A stretch of 64,000 nucleotides of DNA from Escherichia phage vB_EcoM-G3F7, in the sequence record MZ234035.1; one strand, written 5' to 3'. This document shows, piece after piece, positions 2,184-64,000 of the stretch. The translations under genes were made by a program, and so were the position numbers. The notes under the pieces are model-generated. The model ran no database searches. It saw only the letters and a list, made by a program, of their open reading frames with translations, and had not been told where the DNA came from. Every line of letters begins with the position of its first letter. Position 1 is the stretch's first letter.

Positions 2184-3212
2184 ATGTCATCAATACCTTG
2201 GATTGATAATGAGTTTGCATACCGTGCATTAGCTCATTTACCTAAATTCACACAAGTAAATAATAGTTCAACTTTTAAATTACGGTTTAGATGCCCAGTT
2301 TGTGGAGATTCAAAAACCGACCAGAATAAAGCCCGTGGATGGTATTATGGTGATAATAATGAAGGAAATATTCATTGTTATAACTGTAACTATCATGCAC
2401 CAATCGGAATATATTTAAAGGAGTTTGAACCTGATTTATATCGTGAGTATATCTTTGAAATAAGAAAAGAAAAAGGTAAAAGTCGTCCAGTAGAAAAACC
2501 TAAAGAACTTCCTAAACAACCTGAGAAGAAAATAATTAAATCTCTTCCGTCATGTGTTAGATTAGATAAACTGGCGGAAGACCATCCAATTATAAAATAT
2601 GTAAAAGCTCGTTGTATTCCAAAGGATAAATGGAAATATCTTTGGTTTACAACCGAATGGCCTAAATTAGTTAATAGCATAGCACCGGGAACATATAAAA
2701 AGGAAATTTCTGAGCCTCGTCTTGTTATTCCAATTTATAATGCTAATGGAAAAGCTGAGTCTTTTCAAGGACGCGCATTAAAGAAAGATGCTCCTCAAAA
2801 ATATATCACCATCAAAGCTTATCCTGAAGCAACAAAAATTTATGGAGTCGAACGAGTTAAAGATGGTGATGTATATGTTCTAGAAGGACCTATAGATTCA
2901 CTTTTTATTGAAAATGGTATAGCTATTACGGGTGGTCAATTAGACCTAGAAGTTGTTCCATTTAAAGATAGACGAGTGTGGGTTTTAGATAATGAACCTC
3001 GTCACCCTGACACTATTAAACGAATGACTAAATTAGTTGATGCAGGAGAAAGGGTTATGTTTTGGGATAAATCTCCCTGGAAATCAAAAGATGTTAATGA
3101 TATGATTAGAAAGGAAGGTGCAACCACTGAACAAATTATGGAATATATGAAAAATAATATTGCCCAGGGGTTAATGGCTAAAATGCGGCTATCTAAATAT
3201 GCTAAGATTTAA
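2184..3212 (+). CDS. 61: DNA primase gp61
   Basis: 342 aa, zinc-ribbon CPVCGDS...CYNC plus TOPRIM-like region; matches T4 gp61 as recalled. Confidence 0.93.
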   Translation: MSSIPWIDNEFAYRALAHLPKFTQVNNSSTFKLRFRCPVCGDSKTDQNKARGWYYGDNNEGNIHCYNCNYHAPIGIYLKEFEPDLYREYIFEIRKEKGKSRPVEKPKELPKQPEKKIIKSLPSCVRLDKLAEDHPIIKYVKARCIPKDKWKYLWFTTEWPKLVNSIAPGTYKKEISEPRLVIPIYNANGKAESFQGRALKKDAPQKYITIKAYPEATKIYGVERVKDGDVYVLEGPIDSLFIENGIAITGGQLDLEVVPFKDRRVWVLDNEPRHPDTIKRMTKLVDAGERVMFWDKSPWKSKDVNDMIRKEGATTEQIMEYMKNNIAQGLMAKMRLSKYAKI

Positions 3213-3409
3213 ATTAACCCAACTAAAGCAAATGCTAAATCTACGAATGTATCAAGAGTAACTACTGGAATACTAACGCCATGAGCAATAGCAACTGGCG
3301 ATAAAACAAAATTCCAAAGTAAAATTCCTATCATAGCAGTAATAGTAAAAGCTATACGTTTCTTATTACCTTTTATGGCATTAACAAGTGCCATTAATTT
3401 TTGTACCAT
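3209..3409 (-). CDS. Hypothetical small membrane protein, antisense to the early gene block
   Basis: 66-aa hydrophobic ORF; ATG at 3409 preceded on the minus strand by AAGGAGG with a 4-nt spacer; its stop overlaps the gene 61 stop tail-to-tail. Confidence 0.4.
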   Translation of the reverse strand: MVQKLMALVNAIKGNKKRIAFTITAMIGILLWNFVLSPVAIAHGVSIPVVTLDTFVDLAFALVGLI

Positions 3410-3421
3410 ATGTCCTCCTTA

Positions 3422-3446
3422 TTGCTTTATATATTTATTGTATAAT
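3422..3446 (+). promoter_or_regulatory. Candidate MotA-dependent middle promoter upstream of gene 56
   Basis: MotA-box-like TTGCTTTA at 3422-3429, 11-nt gap, TATAAT at 3441-3446. Confidence 0.4.
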
Positions 3447-3482
3447 TAATCTACTAACCCATGAATTGAAAGGAAAAATAAC

Positions 3483-3998
3483 ATGCCACATTTCAACGAA
3501 TGTAGTCAACTGATCGAAGGCGCTGATAAAGCTCAAAATGAATATTGGGATATTCTCGGTGATGAAAAAGACCCGCTGCAGGTAATGCTTGATATGCAGA
3601 AATCTTTACAGATTCGTTTAGCAAATGACCGCGAATACTGTTATCATCCAGATAAATTAGAAACTGCCGGTGATGTTGTTTCTTGGATGCGTGAACAAAA
3701 AGACTGTATTGATGATGAATTCCGCGAACTTCTGACTTCTCTTGGTGAAATGTCACGTGGTGAAAAAGATGCATCGGCAGTTTGGAAAAAATGGAAAGCA
3801 CGTTATATTGAAGCGCAAGAAAAACGCATTGATGAAATGTCCCCAGAAGATCAGCTCGAAATTAAATTTGAGCTTGTGGATATATTTCATTTCGTATTAA
3901 ATATGTTTGCTGGCCTTGGAATGAATGCGGAAGAAATCTTTAAACTTTATTATTTGAAAAATAAACATAATTTTGAACGTCAAGATAATGGGTATTAA
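3483..3998 (+). CDS. 56: dCTPase/dCTP pyrophosphatase gp56 (MazG-like)
   Basis: 171 aa MPHFNECSQLIEGADKAQNEYWDILGDEKDPLQVMLDMQ...; near-identical to T4 gp56 as recalled. Confidence 0.93.
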   Translation: MPHFNECSQLIEGADKAQNEYWDILGDEKDPLQVMLDMQKSLQIRLANDREYCYHPDKLETAGDVVSWMREQKDCIDDEFRELLTSLGEMSRGEKDASAVWKKWKARYIEAQEKRIDEMSPEDQLEIKFELVDIFHFVLNMFAGLGMNAEEIFKLYYLKNKHNFERQDNGY

Positions 3999-7141: not shown

Positions 7142-7765
7142 ATGATTATTAATCTTGCAGATGTTGAACAGTTATCTATAAAAGCTGAAAGCGTTGATTT
7201 TCAATATGATATGTATAAAAAGGTCTGTGAAAAATTTACTGACTTTGAGCAGTCTGTTCTTTGGCAATGTATGGAAGCTAAAAAGAATGAAGAGCTTCAT
7301 CGGCAATTGAATAAAATCATTAAAAAGCATTTAACTAAATCGCCTTATCAGTTATATCGTGGTATATCAAAATCGACAAAAGAACTTATTAAAGATTTAC
7401 AAGTTGGAGAAGTGTTTTCAACGAACAGGGTAGATTCATTTACTACTAGTTTGCATACAGCGTGTTCTTTTTCTTATGCTGAATATTTTACTAAAATAAT
7501 ACTTCGTTTAAAAACTAATAAAGCTTTTAATTATTCTGACCATATCAGCGATATTATACTTTCTTCTCCTAATACTGAGTTTAAGTACACGTATGAAGAT
7601 ACTGATGGGCTAGATTCAGAGCGTACTGATAACTTAATGATGATTGTGCGTGAACAAGAATGGATGATTCCAATTGGAAAGTATAGAATAACTTCTATTT
7701 CAAAAGAAAAATTACACGATTCATTTGGAACATTTAAAGTTTATGATATTGAGGTAGTTGAATGA
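7142..7765 (+). CDS. modB: ADP-ribosyltransferase ModB
   Basis: 207 aa; ART-like motifs (YRG, S-T-x, EQEWMIP); paralog of the next ORF; size and synteny as in T4. Confidence 0.7.
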   Translation: MIINLADVEQLSIKAESVDFQYDMYKKVCEKFTDFEQSVLWQCMEAKKNEELHRQLNKIIKKHLTKSPYQLYRGISKSTKELIKDLQVGEVFSTNRVDSFTTSLHTACSFSYAEYFTKIILRLKTNKAFNYSDHISDIILSSPNTEFKYTYEDTDGLDSERTDNLMMIVREQEWMIPIGKYRITSISKEKLHDSFGTFKVYDIEVVE

Positions 7766-8364
7766 AATACTCAGTAATGCAACTAAAAGATTTTAAAATA
7801 AAATCAATGGATGCATCGGTGCGTGCTTCTATTCGTGAAGAATTACTTTCTGAAGGGTTTAATTTATCTGAAATTGAACTTTTAATTCATTGTATTACTA
7901 ATAAGCCAGATGACCATACTTGGTTAAATGAAATAATCAAATCTCGTTTGGTTCCAAACGATAAACCTCTTTGGAGAGGTGTTCCAGCTGAGACTAAACA
8001 AGTATTAAATCAAGGAATTGATATTATTACATTTGATAAAGTCGTATCAGCTTCATATGATAAAAATATAGCTCTACATTTTGCTTCCGGTTTAGAGTAT
8101 AACACACAAGTTATTTTTGAATTCAAAGCTCCTATGGTATTCAATTTCCAGGAGTATGCTATAAAAGCTCTGCGCTGTAAAGAATACAATCCAAACTTTA
8201 AGTTTCCGGATAGCCATCGTTATCGTAATATGGAATTAGTTTCAGATGAACAAGAAGTAATGATACCAGCTGGAAGTGTATTTAGAATTGCAGATAGATA
8301 TGAGTATAAAAAGTATTCAACATACACTATCTATACTCTTGATTTTGAAGGATTTAATCTATAA
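7762..8364 (+). CDS. modA: ADP-ribosyltransferase ModA
   Basis: 200 aa; WRG, SAS, EQEVMIP motifs; size and synteny as in T4. Confidence 0.7.
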   Translation: MKYSVMQLKDFKIKSMDASVRASIREELLSEGFNLSEIELLIHCITNKPDDHTWLNEIIKSRLVPNDKPLWRGVPAETKQVLNQGIDIITFDKVVSASYDKNIALHFASGLEYNTQVIFEFKAPMVFNFQEYAIKALRCKEYNPNFKFPDSHRYRNMELVSDEQEVMIPAGSVFRIADRYEYKKYSTYTIYTLDFEGFNL

Positions 8365-58655: not shown

Positions 58656-58988
58656 ATGAAAACGATTAATCTGAACGCTACAGTTAAAACTAAATGCTTC
58701 AATGGTAAATATGATGAAACTATGTGGTTCTTAATGGCAGTTGAAGGTGATATCATTGAAGTAGAAACAACAGAAGGTATGGGAACAGATTTCACCTTTA
58801 CAATTCAAGTTCATAATTTCTTTACTGGTTGGATTTATGAATTGAATACAGTAATCGTTGGAAAAATTGAACAAAATGAATTAGGTGAATGGTATTATGT
58901 TACAGCTCGCCAACGTGCCGAACGCTTAATTGAGAAGATGAAAAAAGTTGGTAAACTTGACATGCAGCATTGGAAAGTAGTAAAATAA
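58656..58988 (+). CDS. Hypothetical protein (110 aa)
   Basis: Track ORF, ATG after AAGGAGA. Confidence 0.5.
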   Translation: MKTINLNATVKTKCFNGKYDETMWFLMAVEGDIIEVETTEGMGTDFTFTIQVHNFFTGWIYELNTVIVGKIEQNELGEWYYVTARQRAERLIEKMKKVGKLDMQHWKVVK

Positions 58989-59461: not shown

Positions 59462-59749
59462 ATGTTTATGACTACTTATTTTGATACCCGTAAAAACTTC
59501 TGCGAAGTAGTTTTCTCAAAGGCGCCTAAAGACCTTCCTGCACATTTGCAACCTACCAGTGAATCGATTAAAAACTACGTTAATGTAGTCTGCCCTTTAG
59601 AGTTCCGTACTGTAAATGGGCGCGATACTTTAGCTATCACTAAACTCAATCGCGAAATTGACATTGACCCTTCAATTGCGCGTGAAATTAACATTTCTGA
59701 TATTGGCGGCGGTAATGTTAAATCGCACGGTTTTCAGATGAGGTTTTAA
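59462..59749 (+). CDS. Hypothetical protein (95 aa)
   Basis: Track ORF 59411..59749; ATG 59462 follows GAGGAAAA and a GGGGC-TTTG-GCCCC hairpin. Confidence 0.45.
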   Translation: MFMTTYFDTRKNFCEVVFSKAPKDLPAHLQPTSESIKNYVNVVCPLEFRTVNGRDTLAITKLNREIDIDPSIAREINISDIGGGNVKSHGFQMRF

Positions 59750-59946
59750 TGAAATTCTTTTTAGGTCAAACCGTTGAATTAAAGGGAGTTGGTATACCTG
59801 GATTAATTTCTAAGGTTTTACCTCCATTTAAATGGAGTGGTATTCAAATAAAAGAGGCTTATATTGTTTCCTGGGTAGATGGAAATGAAGACCTTCGTAT
59901 GGGTGATGAATTATCTCCTATCTACGGATTAAAGGAAATAGTATGA
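59749..59946 (+). CDS. Hypothetical protein (65 aa)
   Basis: Track ORF, TAATG overlap. Confidence 0.45.
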   Translation: MKFFLGQTVELKGVGIPGLISKVLPPFKWSGIQIKEAYIVSWVDGNEDLRMGDELSPIYGLKEIV

Positions 59947-60149
59947 ATATAATTAATAAGATTTTTGGAATTCAGTACATTAAGGTCACATATAAAGTAA
60001 CAGATAAAAATCCGTATACTGATGAACATGAAGAACCGCAAGTTGAGTCTATTATATTAGAAAAGGACCCTAACTGGCCAGTTGAATTTCGTCTTCCTTG
60101 CTATGGTCATTGGGCTGATGTTGAAATTATAAGCATTGAAAATGTCTGA
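59943..60149 (+). CDS. Hypothetical protein (68 aa)
   Basis: Track ORF, ATGA overlap. Confidence 0.45.
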   Translation: MNIINKIFGIQYIKVTYKVTDKNPYTDEHEEPQVESIILEKDPNWPVEFRLPCYGHWADVEIISIENV

Positions 60150-60600
60150 GTTAGAGATTAGAAGCAATTTTAGGTGGCCATCATGTGCATTAAGTAATTT
60201 CGCCCATTGGCCTTTCGTTATGGATGGCATTCAATTTGGAGGTCTTGAAGGATTCCTCCAAGGATGCAAAGTGAAAAATGTTGAACAACAACGTCGTATA
60301 TTTGGGTTATCCGGGCTTGCCGCCCAACAAGCTGGAAGGTCTTATGCAAGAGCTCAGGACCGTGGGACCCTCTTCTGGCTTGGAGTTCCATTTTCAAGAT
60401 ACTCCCCGGCGTGGAAAGAATTATACACAAATGCATATTTTGAAGCAGCGATCCAAAACAAGGGCTTCCGTGATGCATTACAAGCCTCGAAAGGAAAAGT
60501 TTTGAAGCACAGCATGGCTAGTGGTCTAACAAAAGATGATACAATACTAACCGAAGCTGAATTTATTGATGTGTTAAACCTATTAAGAGACTCTCTATGA
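60142..60600 (+). CDS. NADAR/YbiA-like domain protein (candidate ADP-ribosyl hydrolase)
   Basis: Track ORF 60136..60600 starts TTG; ATG 60142; motif LSNFAHWPFVMDGIQFGGLEGFLQGCK resembles the YbiA/NADAR signature and C-terminal FIDVLNLLRDSL resembles the YbiA C-terminus as I recall them. Confidence 0.55.
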   Translation: MSELEIRSNFRWPSCALSNFAHWPFVMDGIQFGGLEGFLQGCKVKNVEQQRRIFGLSGLAAQQAGRSYARAQDRGTLFWLGVPFSRYSPAWKELYTNAYFEAAIQNKGFRDALQASKGKVLKHSMASGLTKDDTILTEAEFIDVLNLLRDSL

Positions 60601-61436
60601 AGCCTACTATTTTAACTGATATTGATGGAGTGTGTTTAAGCTGGCAATCAGGCCTTCCTTATTTTGCTCAGAAATATAATCTTCCGTTGGAACATATTTT
60701 AAAAATGATCCAAGATGAAAAATTTATTTCTCCTGGTAAACTTTTTAATTGTGATGAAGAACTTGGTGTCAAGTTAATTGAAAAATACAATCGTTCAGAT
60801 TTTATTCGTTACTTGTCTCCATATAAAGATGCTCTGTGTGTAATTAACAAATTAAAAGAAGATTATAATTTTGTAGCTGTTACAGCGCTGGGTGATTCTA
60901 TTGACGCTCTGCTGAATCGTCAATTTAATTTGAATGCTCTTTTTCCTGGTGCCTTCTCAGAAGTACTGATGTGTGGTCATGATTCTTCAAAAGAAGAGTT
61001 GTTCAAAAAGGCAAAAGAGAAATATAACGTAATTTGTTATATTGACGATCTCGCTCACCACTGCGATCACGCGAGTGAAATATTAAGTGTTCCTGTTTAT
61101 TGGATGGCTCGAGGGGAACGTGACAGTATTCCAAAAACTGCTCAGCGAGTTTATACATGGAACGATGTAGAGAATAAGCTTTTTTCACCAAAGGAAAATA
61201 AAGAAAGTTTTGATAGTGAAAAAACTATAAAAGATGTAATTGAAAAGATGATTAAAAACGATTCTTTTCGTTGGAACACTACCTGGAGAACTCCTGGATT
61301 TAATCCTTATAATCATCTATATCATCCATATCAGACACATCCGTTTCAGACATGGAACTATATTAAACCCGGCGGTATAGAGTATTTGTATAATAGACCT
61401 ACTTGTGGTGATAATATTTTCCAAGGAGCATTCTAA
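60597..61436 (+). CDS. HAD-superfamily hydrolase-like protein
   Basis: 279 aa; N-terminal motif I ILTDIDGV typical of HAD phosphatases/nucleotidases. Confidence 0.5.
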   Translation: MKPTILTDIDGVCLSWQSGLPYFAQKYNLPLEHILKMIQDEKFISPGKLFNCDEELGVKLIEKYNRSDFIRYLSPYKDALCVINKLKEDYNFVAVTALGDSIDALLNRQFNLNALFPGAFSEVLMCGHDSSKEELFKKAKEKYNVICYIDDLAHHCDHASEILSVPVYWMARGERDSIPKTAQRVYTWNDVENKLFSPKENKESFDSEKTIKDVIEKMIKNDSFRWNTTWRTPGFNPYNHLYHPYQTHPFQTWNYIKPGGIEYLYNRPTCGDNIFQGAF

Positions 61437-61705
61437 TGTTTGTTGTTCACACTATTTATGAAAATGAAGGTAATACTACACGTGATTACGGTCACGTAAA
61501 TCAATTTTTTAGATGCAATCCAGAATTCCGAGCTCAAAAAGACGAACGAATTTTTAAAAAATGCGTAGAGCAAGGTTTCATTTATATCAAGCACTGGATG
61601 CAAGGAAATAAAGTTAGAACCACATATCATAAGTCTTTGACTGAGCTTAATGATGAATTGATTTATAATAGAGCTGTAAACCAAACTCTGAAGGATGAAC
61701 AATGA
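61436..61705 (+). CDS. Hypothetical protein (89 aa)
   Basis: Track ORF, TAATG overlap; immediately upstream of ligase. Confidence 0.5.
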   Translation: MFVVHTIYENEGNTTRDYGHVNQFFRCNPEFRAQKDERIFKKCVEQGFIYIKHWMQGNKVRTTYHKSLTELNDELIYNRAVNQTLKDEQ

Positions 61706-63165
61706 TTCTTAAAATTCTGAACGAAATAGCATCTATTGGTTCAACTAAGCAGAAGCAAGCAATTCTTGAAAAGAATAAAGATAATGAATTGCTTAAACGA
61801 GTATATCGTCTGACTTATTCTCGTGGGTTACAGTATTATATCAAGAAATGGCCTAAACCTGGTATTGCTACCCAGAGTTTTGGAATGTTGACTCTTACCG
61901 ATATGCTTGACTTCATTGAATTCACGTTAGCTACTCGGAAATTGACTGGAAATGCGGCAATTGAGGAATTAACTGGATATATCACCGATGGTAAAAAAGA
62001 TGATGTTGAAGTTTTGCGTCGAGTGATGATGCGAGACCTTGAATGTGGTGCTTCAGTATCTATTGCAAACAAAGTTTGGCCAGGTTTAATTCCTGAACAA
62101 CCTCAAATGCTTGCAAGTTCTTATGATGAAAAAGGCATTAATAAGAATATCAAGTTTCCAGCCTTTGCGCAGTTAAAAGCAGATGGAGCTCGGTGTTTTG
62201 CTGAAGTCCGAGGCGATGAATTAGATGATGTTCGTCTTTTATCACGAGCTGGTAATGAATATCTAGGATTAGATCTTCTTAAGGAAGAGTTAATCAAAAT
62301 GACTGCAGAAGCTCGCCAGATTCATCCAGAAGGTGTGTTAATTGATGGCGAATTGGTATACCATGAGCAAGTTGAAAAGGAGCCAGAAGGCCTAGATTTT
62401 CTTTTTGATGCTTATCCTGAAATTAGTAAAGCTAAAGAATTCGCCGAAGTAGCTGAATCACGTACTGCATCTAATGGCATCGCCAATAAATCTTTAAAGG
62501 GAACCATTTCTGAAAAAGAAGCTCAATGCATGAAGTTTCAGGTCTGGGATTATGTCCCGTTGGTAGAAATATACGGTCTTCCTGCATTTCGTTTGAAATA
62601 TGATGTACGTTTTTCTAAACTAGAACAAATGACATCAGGTTATGATAAAGTAATTTTAATTGAAAACCAGGTAGTAAATAACCTAGATGAAGCTAAGGTA
62701 ATTTATAAAAAGTATATTGACCAAGGTCTTGAAGGTATTATTCTCAAAAATACCGATGGATTGTGGGAAAATGCTCGTTCAAAAAATCTCTATAAATTTA
62801 AAGAAGTAATTGATGTTGATTTAAAAATTGTAGGAATTTATCCTCACCGTAAAGACCCTACTAAAGCGGGTGGATTTATTCTTGAATCAGAGTGTGGAAA
62901 AATTAAGGTAAATGCTGGTTCAGGCTTAAAAGATAAAGCCGGTGTAAAATCGCATGAACTTGACCGTACTCGCATTATGGAAAACCAAAATTATTATATT
63001 GGAAAAATTCTAGAGTGCGAATGCAACGGTTGGTTAAAATCTGATGGCCGCACTGATTACGTTAAATTATTTCTTCCGATTGCGATTCGTTTACGTGAAG
63101 ATAAAACTAAAGCTAATACATTCGAGGATGTATTTGGTGATTTTCATGAGGTAACTGGTTTATGA
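61702..63165 (+). CDS. 30: ATP-dependent DNA ligase gp30
   Basis: 487 aa; adenylation motif region KADGAR; matches T4 ligase as recalled. Confidence 0.93.
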   Translation: MILKILNEIASIGSTKQKQAILEKNKDNELLKRVYRLTYSRGLQYYIKKWPKPGIATQSFGMLTLTDMLDFIEFTLATRKLTGNAAIEELTGYITDGKKDDVEVLRRVMMRDLECGASVSIANKVWPGLIPEQPQMLASSYDEKGINKNIKFPAFAQLKADGARCFAEVRGDELDDVRLLSRAGNEYLGLDLLKEELIKMTAEARQIHPEGVLIDGELVYHEQVEKEPEGLDFLFDAYPEISKAKEFAEVAESRTASNGIANKSLKGTISEKEAQCMKFQVWDYVPLVEIYGLPAFRLKYDVRFSKLEQMTSGYDKVILIENQVVNNLDEAKVIYKKYIDQGLEGIILKNTDGLWENARSKNLYKFKEVIDVDLKIVGIYPHRKDPTKAGGFILESECGKIKVNAGSGLKDKAGVKSHELDRTRIMENQNYYIGKILECECNGWLKSDGRTDYVKLFLPIAIRLREDKTKANTFEDVFGDFHEVTGL

Positions 63166-63350
63166 AAGCTTACTTAGAAACAATTGTCATTGCTCAAAAA
63201 GAAGGTGGAGATGTTTCTACTTCTGTATCACAAGTCATTCTCGAATTTGTAGATGCATACGCTTATAATAAATTTACAGAAACATTTGATGCCTATGAAA
63301 AAGGACCAAAGTTTGAAATATATCGTACTCTCTTACCACTAGATTACTAA
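63162..63350 (+). CDS. Hypothetical protein (62 aa)
   Basis: Track ORF, ATGA overlap with ligase stop. Confidence 0.45.
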   Translation: MKAYLETIVIAQKEGGDVSTSVSQVILEFVDAYAYNKFTETFDAYEKGPKFEIYRTLLPLDY

Positions 63351-63366
63351 AGGCCTTCGGGCCTTT
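63349..63366 (+). terminator. Stem-loop terminator (second copy of AAAGGCC-TTCG-GGCCTTT)
   Basis: Same hairpin as at 15577-15594. Confidence 0.5.
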
Positions 63367-63371
63367 AATTT

Positions 63372-63402: not shown

Positions 63403-64000
63403 ATGGAACTTATTACAGAATTATTTGACGAAGATACTACTCTTCCGATTACAAACTTAAATCCAAAGAAGAAAATACCGCAAATTTTTTCAGTTCATGT
63501 TGATGATGCAATTGAACAACCAGGCTTTCGTTTATGTACCTATACATCTGGAGGTGATACTAATCGCGATTTAAAAATGGGCGATAAAATGATGCATATT
63601 GTTCCTTTTACATTAACCGCTAAAGGTTCAATTGCTAAATTAAAAGGTCTTGGTCCAAGCCCAATTAATTATATCAATTCAGTTTTTACTGTTGCAATGC
63701 AAACAATGCGTCAGTATAAAATTGATGCTTGTATGCTTCGTATTCTTAAGTCTAAAACCGCTGGTCAAGCTCGACAAATTCAAGTTATTGCTGATAGACT
63801 TATCCGTAGTCGTTCAGGTGGCAGATACGTCCTTCTTAAGGAACTCTGGGATTATGATAAAAAGTATGCATATATTCTTATACATCGCAAAAATGTATCA
63901 CTAGAAGACATTCCAGGAGTTCCGGAAATTAGTACCGAGCTCTTTACTAAAGTTGAATCGAAGGTCGGTGATGTTTATATCAATAAAGATACCGGAGCTC
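63403..64000 (+). CDS. alt: Alt ADP-ribosyltransferase (head-packaged), 3'-truncated by window edge
   Basis: Open frame from ATG 63403 to window end; MELITELFDEDTTLPITNLNPKKKIPQIFSVHVDD... matches T4 Alt N-terminus as I recall it; position after ligase. Confidence 0.7.
   Translation, partial: MELITELFDEDTTLPITNLNPKKKIPQIFSVHVDDAIEQPGFRLCTYTSGGDTNRDLKMGDKMMHIVPFTLTAKGSIAKLKGLGPSPINYINSVFTVAMQTMRQYKIDACMLRILKSKTAGQARQIQVIADRLIRSRSGGRYVLLKELWDYDKKYAYILIHRKNVSLEDIPGVPEISTELFTKVESKVGDVYINKDTGA

Follow-up and report, generated by a model that had tools for sequence, protein, structure and literature searches.

Upstream of the DNA ligase gene of Escherichia phage vB_EcoM-G3F7 (MZ234035.1) lies an open reading frame for a protein of 152 amino acids, and this locus raises the question of whether a phage that carries ADP-ribosyltransferases also carries an enzyme that takes ADP-ribose off DNA. 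A first-pass annotation, made from the sequence alone, had read the product as a NADAR/YbiA-like protein and a candidate ADP-ribose eraser. We analyzed the gene within a 64-kb stretch of the phage DNA (64,000 nucleotides, here called the window). The gene is almost certainly adfN (T4 gene 30.3), which encodes a free-standing "orphan antitoxin" from the NADAR superfamily. Published work already covers its fold, activity, and biological role, as well as its co-occurrence with ADP-ribosyltransferases, and the finding is therefore not new. A blind reading of the sequence arrived correctly at a counter-defence gene that was already in the literature; the discovery value is small, and the motif-based call proved sound.

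The adfN gene and its surroundings

The phage genome is that of a T4-like myovirus (Tequatrovirus). The stretch from 59700 to 61800 is 100% identical to the corresponding DNA of Escherichia phages vB_EcoM-CHD94UKE2 and G3F10 and matches 652 phage records, mainly of Escherichia and Shigella Tequatrovirus. The open reading frame as listed runs from a TTG at 60136 to 60600 on the plus strand, and the ATG at 60142 yields a product of 152 amino acids. Both this start and this length match the annotated T4 gene 30.3, bearing out the interval of 60142 to 60600 that had been assigned to the gene at first. The features of the locus are as follows.

58957 to 58986, plus strand: sigma-70-like promoter match (TTGACA-18-TAAAAT), the best upstream of the 30.7–30 string
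59943 to 60149, plus strand: gene 30.4, 68 amino acids, function unknown; its stop codon overlaps the adfN start
60142 to 60600, plus strand: adfN (T4 gene 30.3), stop codon included; 152-amino-acid NADAR-fold protein, predicted DNA ADP-ribosylglycohydrolase
60278 to 60505, plus strand: ORF 30.3′, 75 amino acids, nested in adfN in the +1 frame; the T4 annotation gives it as a product of internal translation
60597 to 61436, plus strand: gene 30.2, 279 amino acids; start coupled to the adfN stop; predicted HAD-superfamily fold over residues 1 to about 200
63348 to 63367, plus strand: terminator-like hairpin after alt.1, a pattern match only

The local gene string 30.7-30.6-30.5-30.4-30.3-30.2-30.1-30 (ligase)-alt.1-alt follows the order found in T4. 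The ATG of adfN overlaps the stop codon of 30.4 in ATGTCTGA (60142 to 60149), and at the other end the ATGA at 60597 to 60600 combines the TGA of adfN with the start codon of 30.2. By this arrangement, adfN is translationally coupled on both sides, to 30.4 upstream and to 30.2 downstream. No DarT gene is found near adfN, which is flanked by the phage genes 30.4 and 30.2 as in T4, and adfN is therefore an orphan in this genome.

The sigma-70-like match at 58957 to 58986 is possibly an early promoter of the adfN-containing unit. This assignment is weak and tentative, because promoter-like sites are no commoner in the region than in shuffled sequence. The same unit may possibly terminate at the hairpin at 63348 to 63367. 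Iyer et al. (2022; PMC9503650) described the NADARs of T4-like phages as early genes that are co-expressed with ADP-ribosyltransferases, and early expression of adfN would be expected in this phage as well. ORF 30.3′ was considered as a functional part of the locus and rejected, because related phages do not conserve it: in Mosigvirus ST0 a stop codon breaks the frame, and in VR20 the ATG is missing. The small gene alt.1 (63162 to 63350, 62 amino acids) matches Pfam PF24647 "Phage blade protein" with an E value of 1.9e-29.

The locus also bears on the annotation of related phages. In GenBank, adfN still goes under "hypothetical protein" in most records of T4-like phages, a label that can now be corrected. 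In the RefSeq record of phage IME281 (NC_055740), an intact adfN is present at 1501 to 1959 of the examined locus and is not annotated, and the T2 record places the start of adfN too late. A truncated T2 allele, hinted at by a cluster representative of 109 amino acids, was considered and rejected, since the T2 gene translates intact into 152 amino acids.

Membership in the NADAR superfamily and integrity of the allele

Direct searches with the product place it in a phage family. The protein matches Pfam PF08010 (Phage_30_3) over the full model, positions 1 to 138, with an E value of 7.4e-70 and a score of 233.6 bits (cut-off 36), and it matches PHROG 652, a PHROG without assigned function. In the direct Pfam scan of the protein, PF08719 (NADAR) was not matched at E≤1; an NCBIfam search with the protein found nothing; and a single-sequence phmmer search against the PDB found no NADARs, returning only an ATP pyrophosphatase at chance level (E 0.61). 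Because these direct searches gave no NADAR match, membership in the superfamily rests on the family profile, on transitive matches, and on the fold.

In a large protein collection, 104 homologues were found, and every one of them carries PF08010. Several of them are named "YbiA (DUF1768 family)" by JGI, and one carries precomputed matches to both PF08010 and PF08719. From 68 full-length homologues, a conservation alignment and a family profile were built. Scanned individually, 8 of the 68 match PF08719 (best E 1.5e-7), and the profile finds E. coli YbiA (PDB 2b3w) at an E value of 0.0048, exactly over the motif that had been quoted for the product at first. Together with the PF08010 match and the 104 homologues, this puts the resemblance well beyond what chance would give. 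That peptide, LSNFAHWPFVMDGIQFGGLEGFLQGCK, and the C-terminal LLRDSL are both found in the adfN translation, and the YbiA motif with which it had been compared is correct, with residues 29 to 56 of PDB 2b3w reading FSNFAAWPIKVDGKTWPTSEHYFQAQKF. In a Foldseek search with the predicted structure, the top three matches are NADAR structures.

Pfam keeps gp30.3 as PF08010, a model separate from the NADAR model PF08719. A comparison with the Pfam NADAR profile had been proposed as a check, and taken literally, the direct scan would count as a refutation under the condition set at first, the lack of a significant profile match to NADAR/YbiA; a match emerges only with the family profile and in the comparison of folds. 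We did not read the null result of the Pfam scan as refuting the assignment, since family profile, transitive matches, and fold all point the same way. Collectively, these sequence and model comparisons place the product, as a NADAR-fold enzyme, in the phage gp30.3 clade. The fold matches, a conserved Glu and Lys, and a phage-type His support the NADAR/YbiA-like reading given at first. The residues and segment concerned are listed below.

60247 to 60249, plus strand: E36, catalytic glutamate; codon GAA; invariant in the 68 homologues; aligns with YbiA E48
60268 to 60270, plus strand: K43, catalytic lysine; codon AAA; at least 90% conserved in the 68 homologues; aligns with YbiA K55
60508 to 60510, plus strand: H123; codon CAC; invariant in the 68 homologues; adjoins the last strand (residues 120 to 122) of the model
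60553 to 60597, plus strand: C-terminal helix, residues 138 to 152, EAEFIDVLNLLRDSL; identical to T4; helix over 138 to 151 in the model

In addition to E36 and H123, the residues P13, A16, L17, S18, N19, F20, F25, G37, F38, Q40, T134, L136, and T137 are invariant in the 68 homologues. In the E..FQ..K motif, both catalytic residues, Glu and Lys (E88 and K95 in the E. coli C7 NADAR), are present, and the numbering of E36 and K43 is that of the residues mutated in AdfN-T4. A further subfamily-defining Glu is reported to be replaced by Asp in DarT1-linked NADARs and by His in phage NADARs (PMC11543638, citing de Souza and Aravind; PMC11125620). Judged by conservation, by position next to the last strand, and by this published rule, H123 is probably the phage-type His that stands in place of the YbiA-type Glu or the DarT1-linked-type Asp.

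The product is identical to T4 gp30.3 at 150 of 152 positions, with H22 for Q and M125 for I. Both differences fall outside the catalytic positions; at position 125 the family consensus is M, and position 22 varies among the 68 homologues. Residues 138 to 152, which are present here, are the portion missing from the frameshift allele of phage RB69. Nothing in the sequence suggests loss of function in this allele, and the protein with H22 and M125 would be expected to behave as the T4 protein does.

Probable removal of ADP-ribose from DNA and other readings of the gene

NADARs were characterized as guanine-ADP-ribose hydrolases and DarT1 antitoxins by Schuller et al. (2023; PMC11543638). Cihlova et al. 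(2024; PMC11125620), who termed the phage NADARs "gp30.3 proteins," showed that the T4 phage NADAR hydrolyses guanine-ADPr and not thymine-ADPr in vitro, and that it does not rescue cells from DarT1 toxicity. In 2025, a study in Nature Communications (PMC11825919) traced the resistance of T2 and T4 against DarTG1 to gene 30.3, which was given the new name adfN, for anti-DarT factor NADAR. T4 with adfN deleted became sensitive to DarTG1, and RB69 was rescued by ectopic AdfN-T4; AdfN is both necessary and sufficient for the DarTG1 resistance of T-even phages (PMC11825919). Purified AdfN-T4 removed ADP-ribose from DarT1-modified DNA, an activity that the E36A variant had lost. In phage replication, the E36A and K43A variants and a C-terminal truncation, which mimics the RB69 frameshift allele in losing 15 residues, each gave only partial rescue (PMC11825919). 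DarTG2 was not countered by AdfN-T4 (PMC11825919).

These published results bear directly on the activity first proposed for the gene. Removal of ADP-ribose from guanine and reversal of DarT modification have been shown for a protein that shares 150 of its 152 residues with the product studied here (PMC11125620, PMC11825919). The proposed reversal of DarT-type modification holds for DarT1, which acts on guanine, and not for DarT2, which acts on thymine. By analogy with the T4 protein, the present allele probably has guanine-ADP-ribose DNA glycohydrolase activity. It would also be expected to confer DarTG1 resistance, as in T4 and T2 and as in the complementation of RB69.

The proposed course of events is the following. 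In a host with DarTG1, infection would lead DarT1 to place ADP-ribose on guanines of the phage DNA, and replication would be blocked. AdfN, produced from the early-side 30.x gene string, would then cleave the N-glycosidic bond that joins the ribose to the amino group of guanine, releasing free ADP-ribose, restoring normal DNA, and allowing the phage to escape. Catalysis would proceed by way of E36, K43, and the phage-type H123, and full activity would require the C-terminal helix.

A different function has to be weighed, namely that AdfN mainly degrades small soluble molecules, such as ADP-ribose-derived immune signals or intermediates of the riboflavin pathway, and not DNA adducts. NADAR domains have also been described as N-glycosidases that act on riboflavin intermediates, as for the YbiA type (Iyer et al.; PMC9503650), and the failure of AdfN-T4 to detoxify DarT1 in uninfected cells could be read in the same direction. 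Against this, the T4 protein directly strips ADP-ribose from DNA in vitro and is genetically necessary and sufficient against DarTG1. No soluble substrate has been demonstrated, and an added activity of this kind could exist but the data are explained without it. We consider a mainly soluble substrate improbable.

Another possibility is that AdfN erases the marks that the ADP-ribosyltransferases of the phage itself place on host proteins or RNA. The first-pass annotation had counted three such enzymes in the window, a count that holds in full for two of them: ModB (7142 to 7765) and ModA (7762 to 8364) are complete and are 96% and 99% identical to their T4 counterparts, respectively. The third, Alt, starts at 63403, and the end of the window cuts the gene after 199 of its 682 residues; these 199 residues (63403 to 64000) are 99% identical to T4 Alt, and the catalytic part lies beyond the window. 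The known targets of Alt, ModA, and ModB are arginine residues in host proteins.

The eraser and the writers thus share a genome and lie in early regions, with alt starting 2.8 kb downstream of adfN, and the reported expression of T4-like NADARs together with ADP-ribosyltransferases (PMC9503650) fits such a role. However, the substrate of the tested NADARs is ADP-ribose bound to guanine in DNA, a linkage different from that to protein arginines. Furthermore, adfN sits in the 30.x string adjacent to none of the three genes, and distant carriers of Phage_30_3 have no ADP-ribosyltransferase neighbor. A role for AdfN in reversing the phage's own modifications is very unlikely. The description of a phage with both "writers" and an "eraser" stands as co-occurrence; as a functional link to ModA, ModB, or Alt it is unsupported, and evidence for such a link was not found.

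It is extremely unlikely that the allele is inactive and decaying in the manner of the RB69 frameshift allele: natural disruptions do exist, in RB69, in phage NR1 with its 30.3′/30.3 frame-fusion product, and in phage RPN226 with a 30.8/30.3 deletion fusion, but the present reading frame is full-length, has the T4 start and stop, keeps all invariant residues, and departs from the tested T4 protein by just two substitutions, one of them to the family consensus. Removal of ADP-ribose from DarT1-modified phage DNA is therefore the reading that we prefer for adfN.

The infection context and comparison with known systems

AdfN-T4 is fully effective only in T-even infection, possibly needing another phage protein, and it gives scarcely any help to phages outside the T-even group (PMC11825919). 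Because the T4 protein fails in uninfected cells and barely aids phages that are not T-even, the picture in which the enzyme alone suffices is incomplete. Why T4-type AdfN needs the context of a T-even infection is the nearby biology of interest.

One factor of the T4 genome is missing here. The T4 AdfA protein (gene 61.2, 208 amino acids) was used as a tblastn query, and adfA was absent throughout the 64-kb window. The genes between which it would lie are as follows.

1711 to 2004: sp
2017 to 2178: 61.1, with adfA missing between sp and this gene
2184 to 3212: 61

Phage T2 likewise has no adfA (PMC11825919). Since adfA is absent, AdfN is the only known anti-DarT1 factor in this DNA, and this phage, like T2, offers a clean background for a partner test. 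The dam methyltransferase gene, which lies between 61 and 56 in T4, was also absent in a tblastn search with the T4 protein. The 270-bp gap at the dam site (3212 to 3483) holds only a hydrophobic open reading frame of 66 amino acids on the minus strand (3209 to 3409). With respect to the literature, section 4.2 of PMC11125620 lists "E. coli T4 phage NADAR (gp30.3; residues 1-208)," and gp30.3 has 152 residues; the figure of 208 coincides with the length of gp61.2 (AdfA).

A candidate for the partner of T4-type AdfN is the coupled downstream gene 30.2. This gene has no Pfam family and is annotated as "hypothetical" in T4. Residues D8, D10, and G11 of a DxDG motif are invariant in the alignment of its homologues, and its family profile matches the 5′(3′)-deoxyribonucleotidase 2jao at an E value of 0.017. 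In the AF2 model, residues 1 to 190 have a pLDDT above 90, and Foldseek finds 2jao (E 1.6e-8) and, after it, many further HAD enzymes; the C-terminal part of about 80 residues is predicted to be disordered and is rich in Pro and aromatic residues. Profile and model thus point to a HAD fold, with 5′(3′)-deoxyribonucleotidases as the nearest match.

For the partner question, the neighborhoods of three homologues were taken and their neighbors compared by BLASTP and phmmer. Among these three neighborhoods, 30.2, 30.1, ligase, and Alt are kept near 30.3 only at the T4-like locus; the adjacency of 30.2 and 30.3 there extends to a T4-like contig in which AdfN identity is down to 58%. In the two distant groups of Phage_30_3 carriers, 30.2 is not adjacent and no neighbor is common to them. 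Since the distant carriers share no neighbor, gene context does not establish a conserved partner for AdfN. Translational coupling and an adjacency that extends down to 58% AdfN identity in T4-like phages speak for 30.2; the distant carriers that lack it as a neighbor, and a reaction with no chemistry that obviously needs a phosphatase, speak against it. On balance, 30.2 as the partner of T4-type AdfN is quite improbable.

Compared to the known NADAR systems, the present gene is closest to AdfN-T4 (gp30.3, NP_049816; PMC11825919). The two share their length, their start and stop overlaps, and the gene order 30.4-30.3-30.2-30.1-30-alt.1-alt, and the proteins, at 99% identity (150/152), have E36, K43, and the C-terminal helix in common. 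They differ by Q22H and I125M in the protein studied here and by adfA, which T4 has and this phage lacks.

The NADARs of bacteria and eukaryotes are far more distant. First, DarG1 and the other DarT1-associated NADARs of the BC4488 subfamily (E. coli C7; Geobacter lovleyi, PDB 8bat) are about 15% identical to AdfN. They have a catalytic Asp (D171 in C7) where AdfN probably has His, and they sit with DarT1, whereas AdfN is phage-encoded and has no DarT1 partner gene. In uninfected cells, AdfN-T4 cannot replace DarG1. Second, members of the YbiA subfamily, such as E. coli YbiA (PDB 2b3w) and the Phytophthora NADAR (PDB 8bau), are 16% to 21% identical to AdfN. Their defining Glu on the last strand (E125 of the Phytophthora NADAR) would correspond to His in AdfN, as judged by conservation and the rule from the literature, and YbiA is a host gene of the LexA regulon and not a counter-defence factor.

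AdfN-Bas32 and AdfN-Bas60, from T5-like and Vequintavirinae phages, resemble the present protein in being orphan NADARs that phages encode and in countering DarTG1. They stem from independent acquisitions and belong to NADAR clades other than that of T4-type AdfN. Moreover, they work in uninfected cells and in unrelated phages, whereas T4-type AdfN needs T-even infection to be fully effective.
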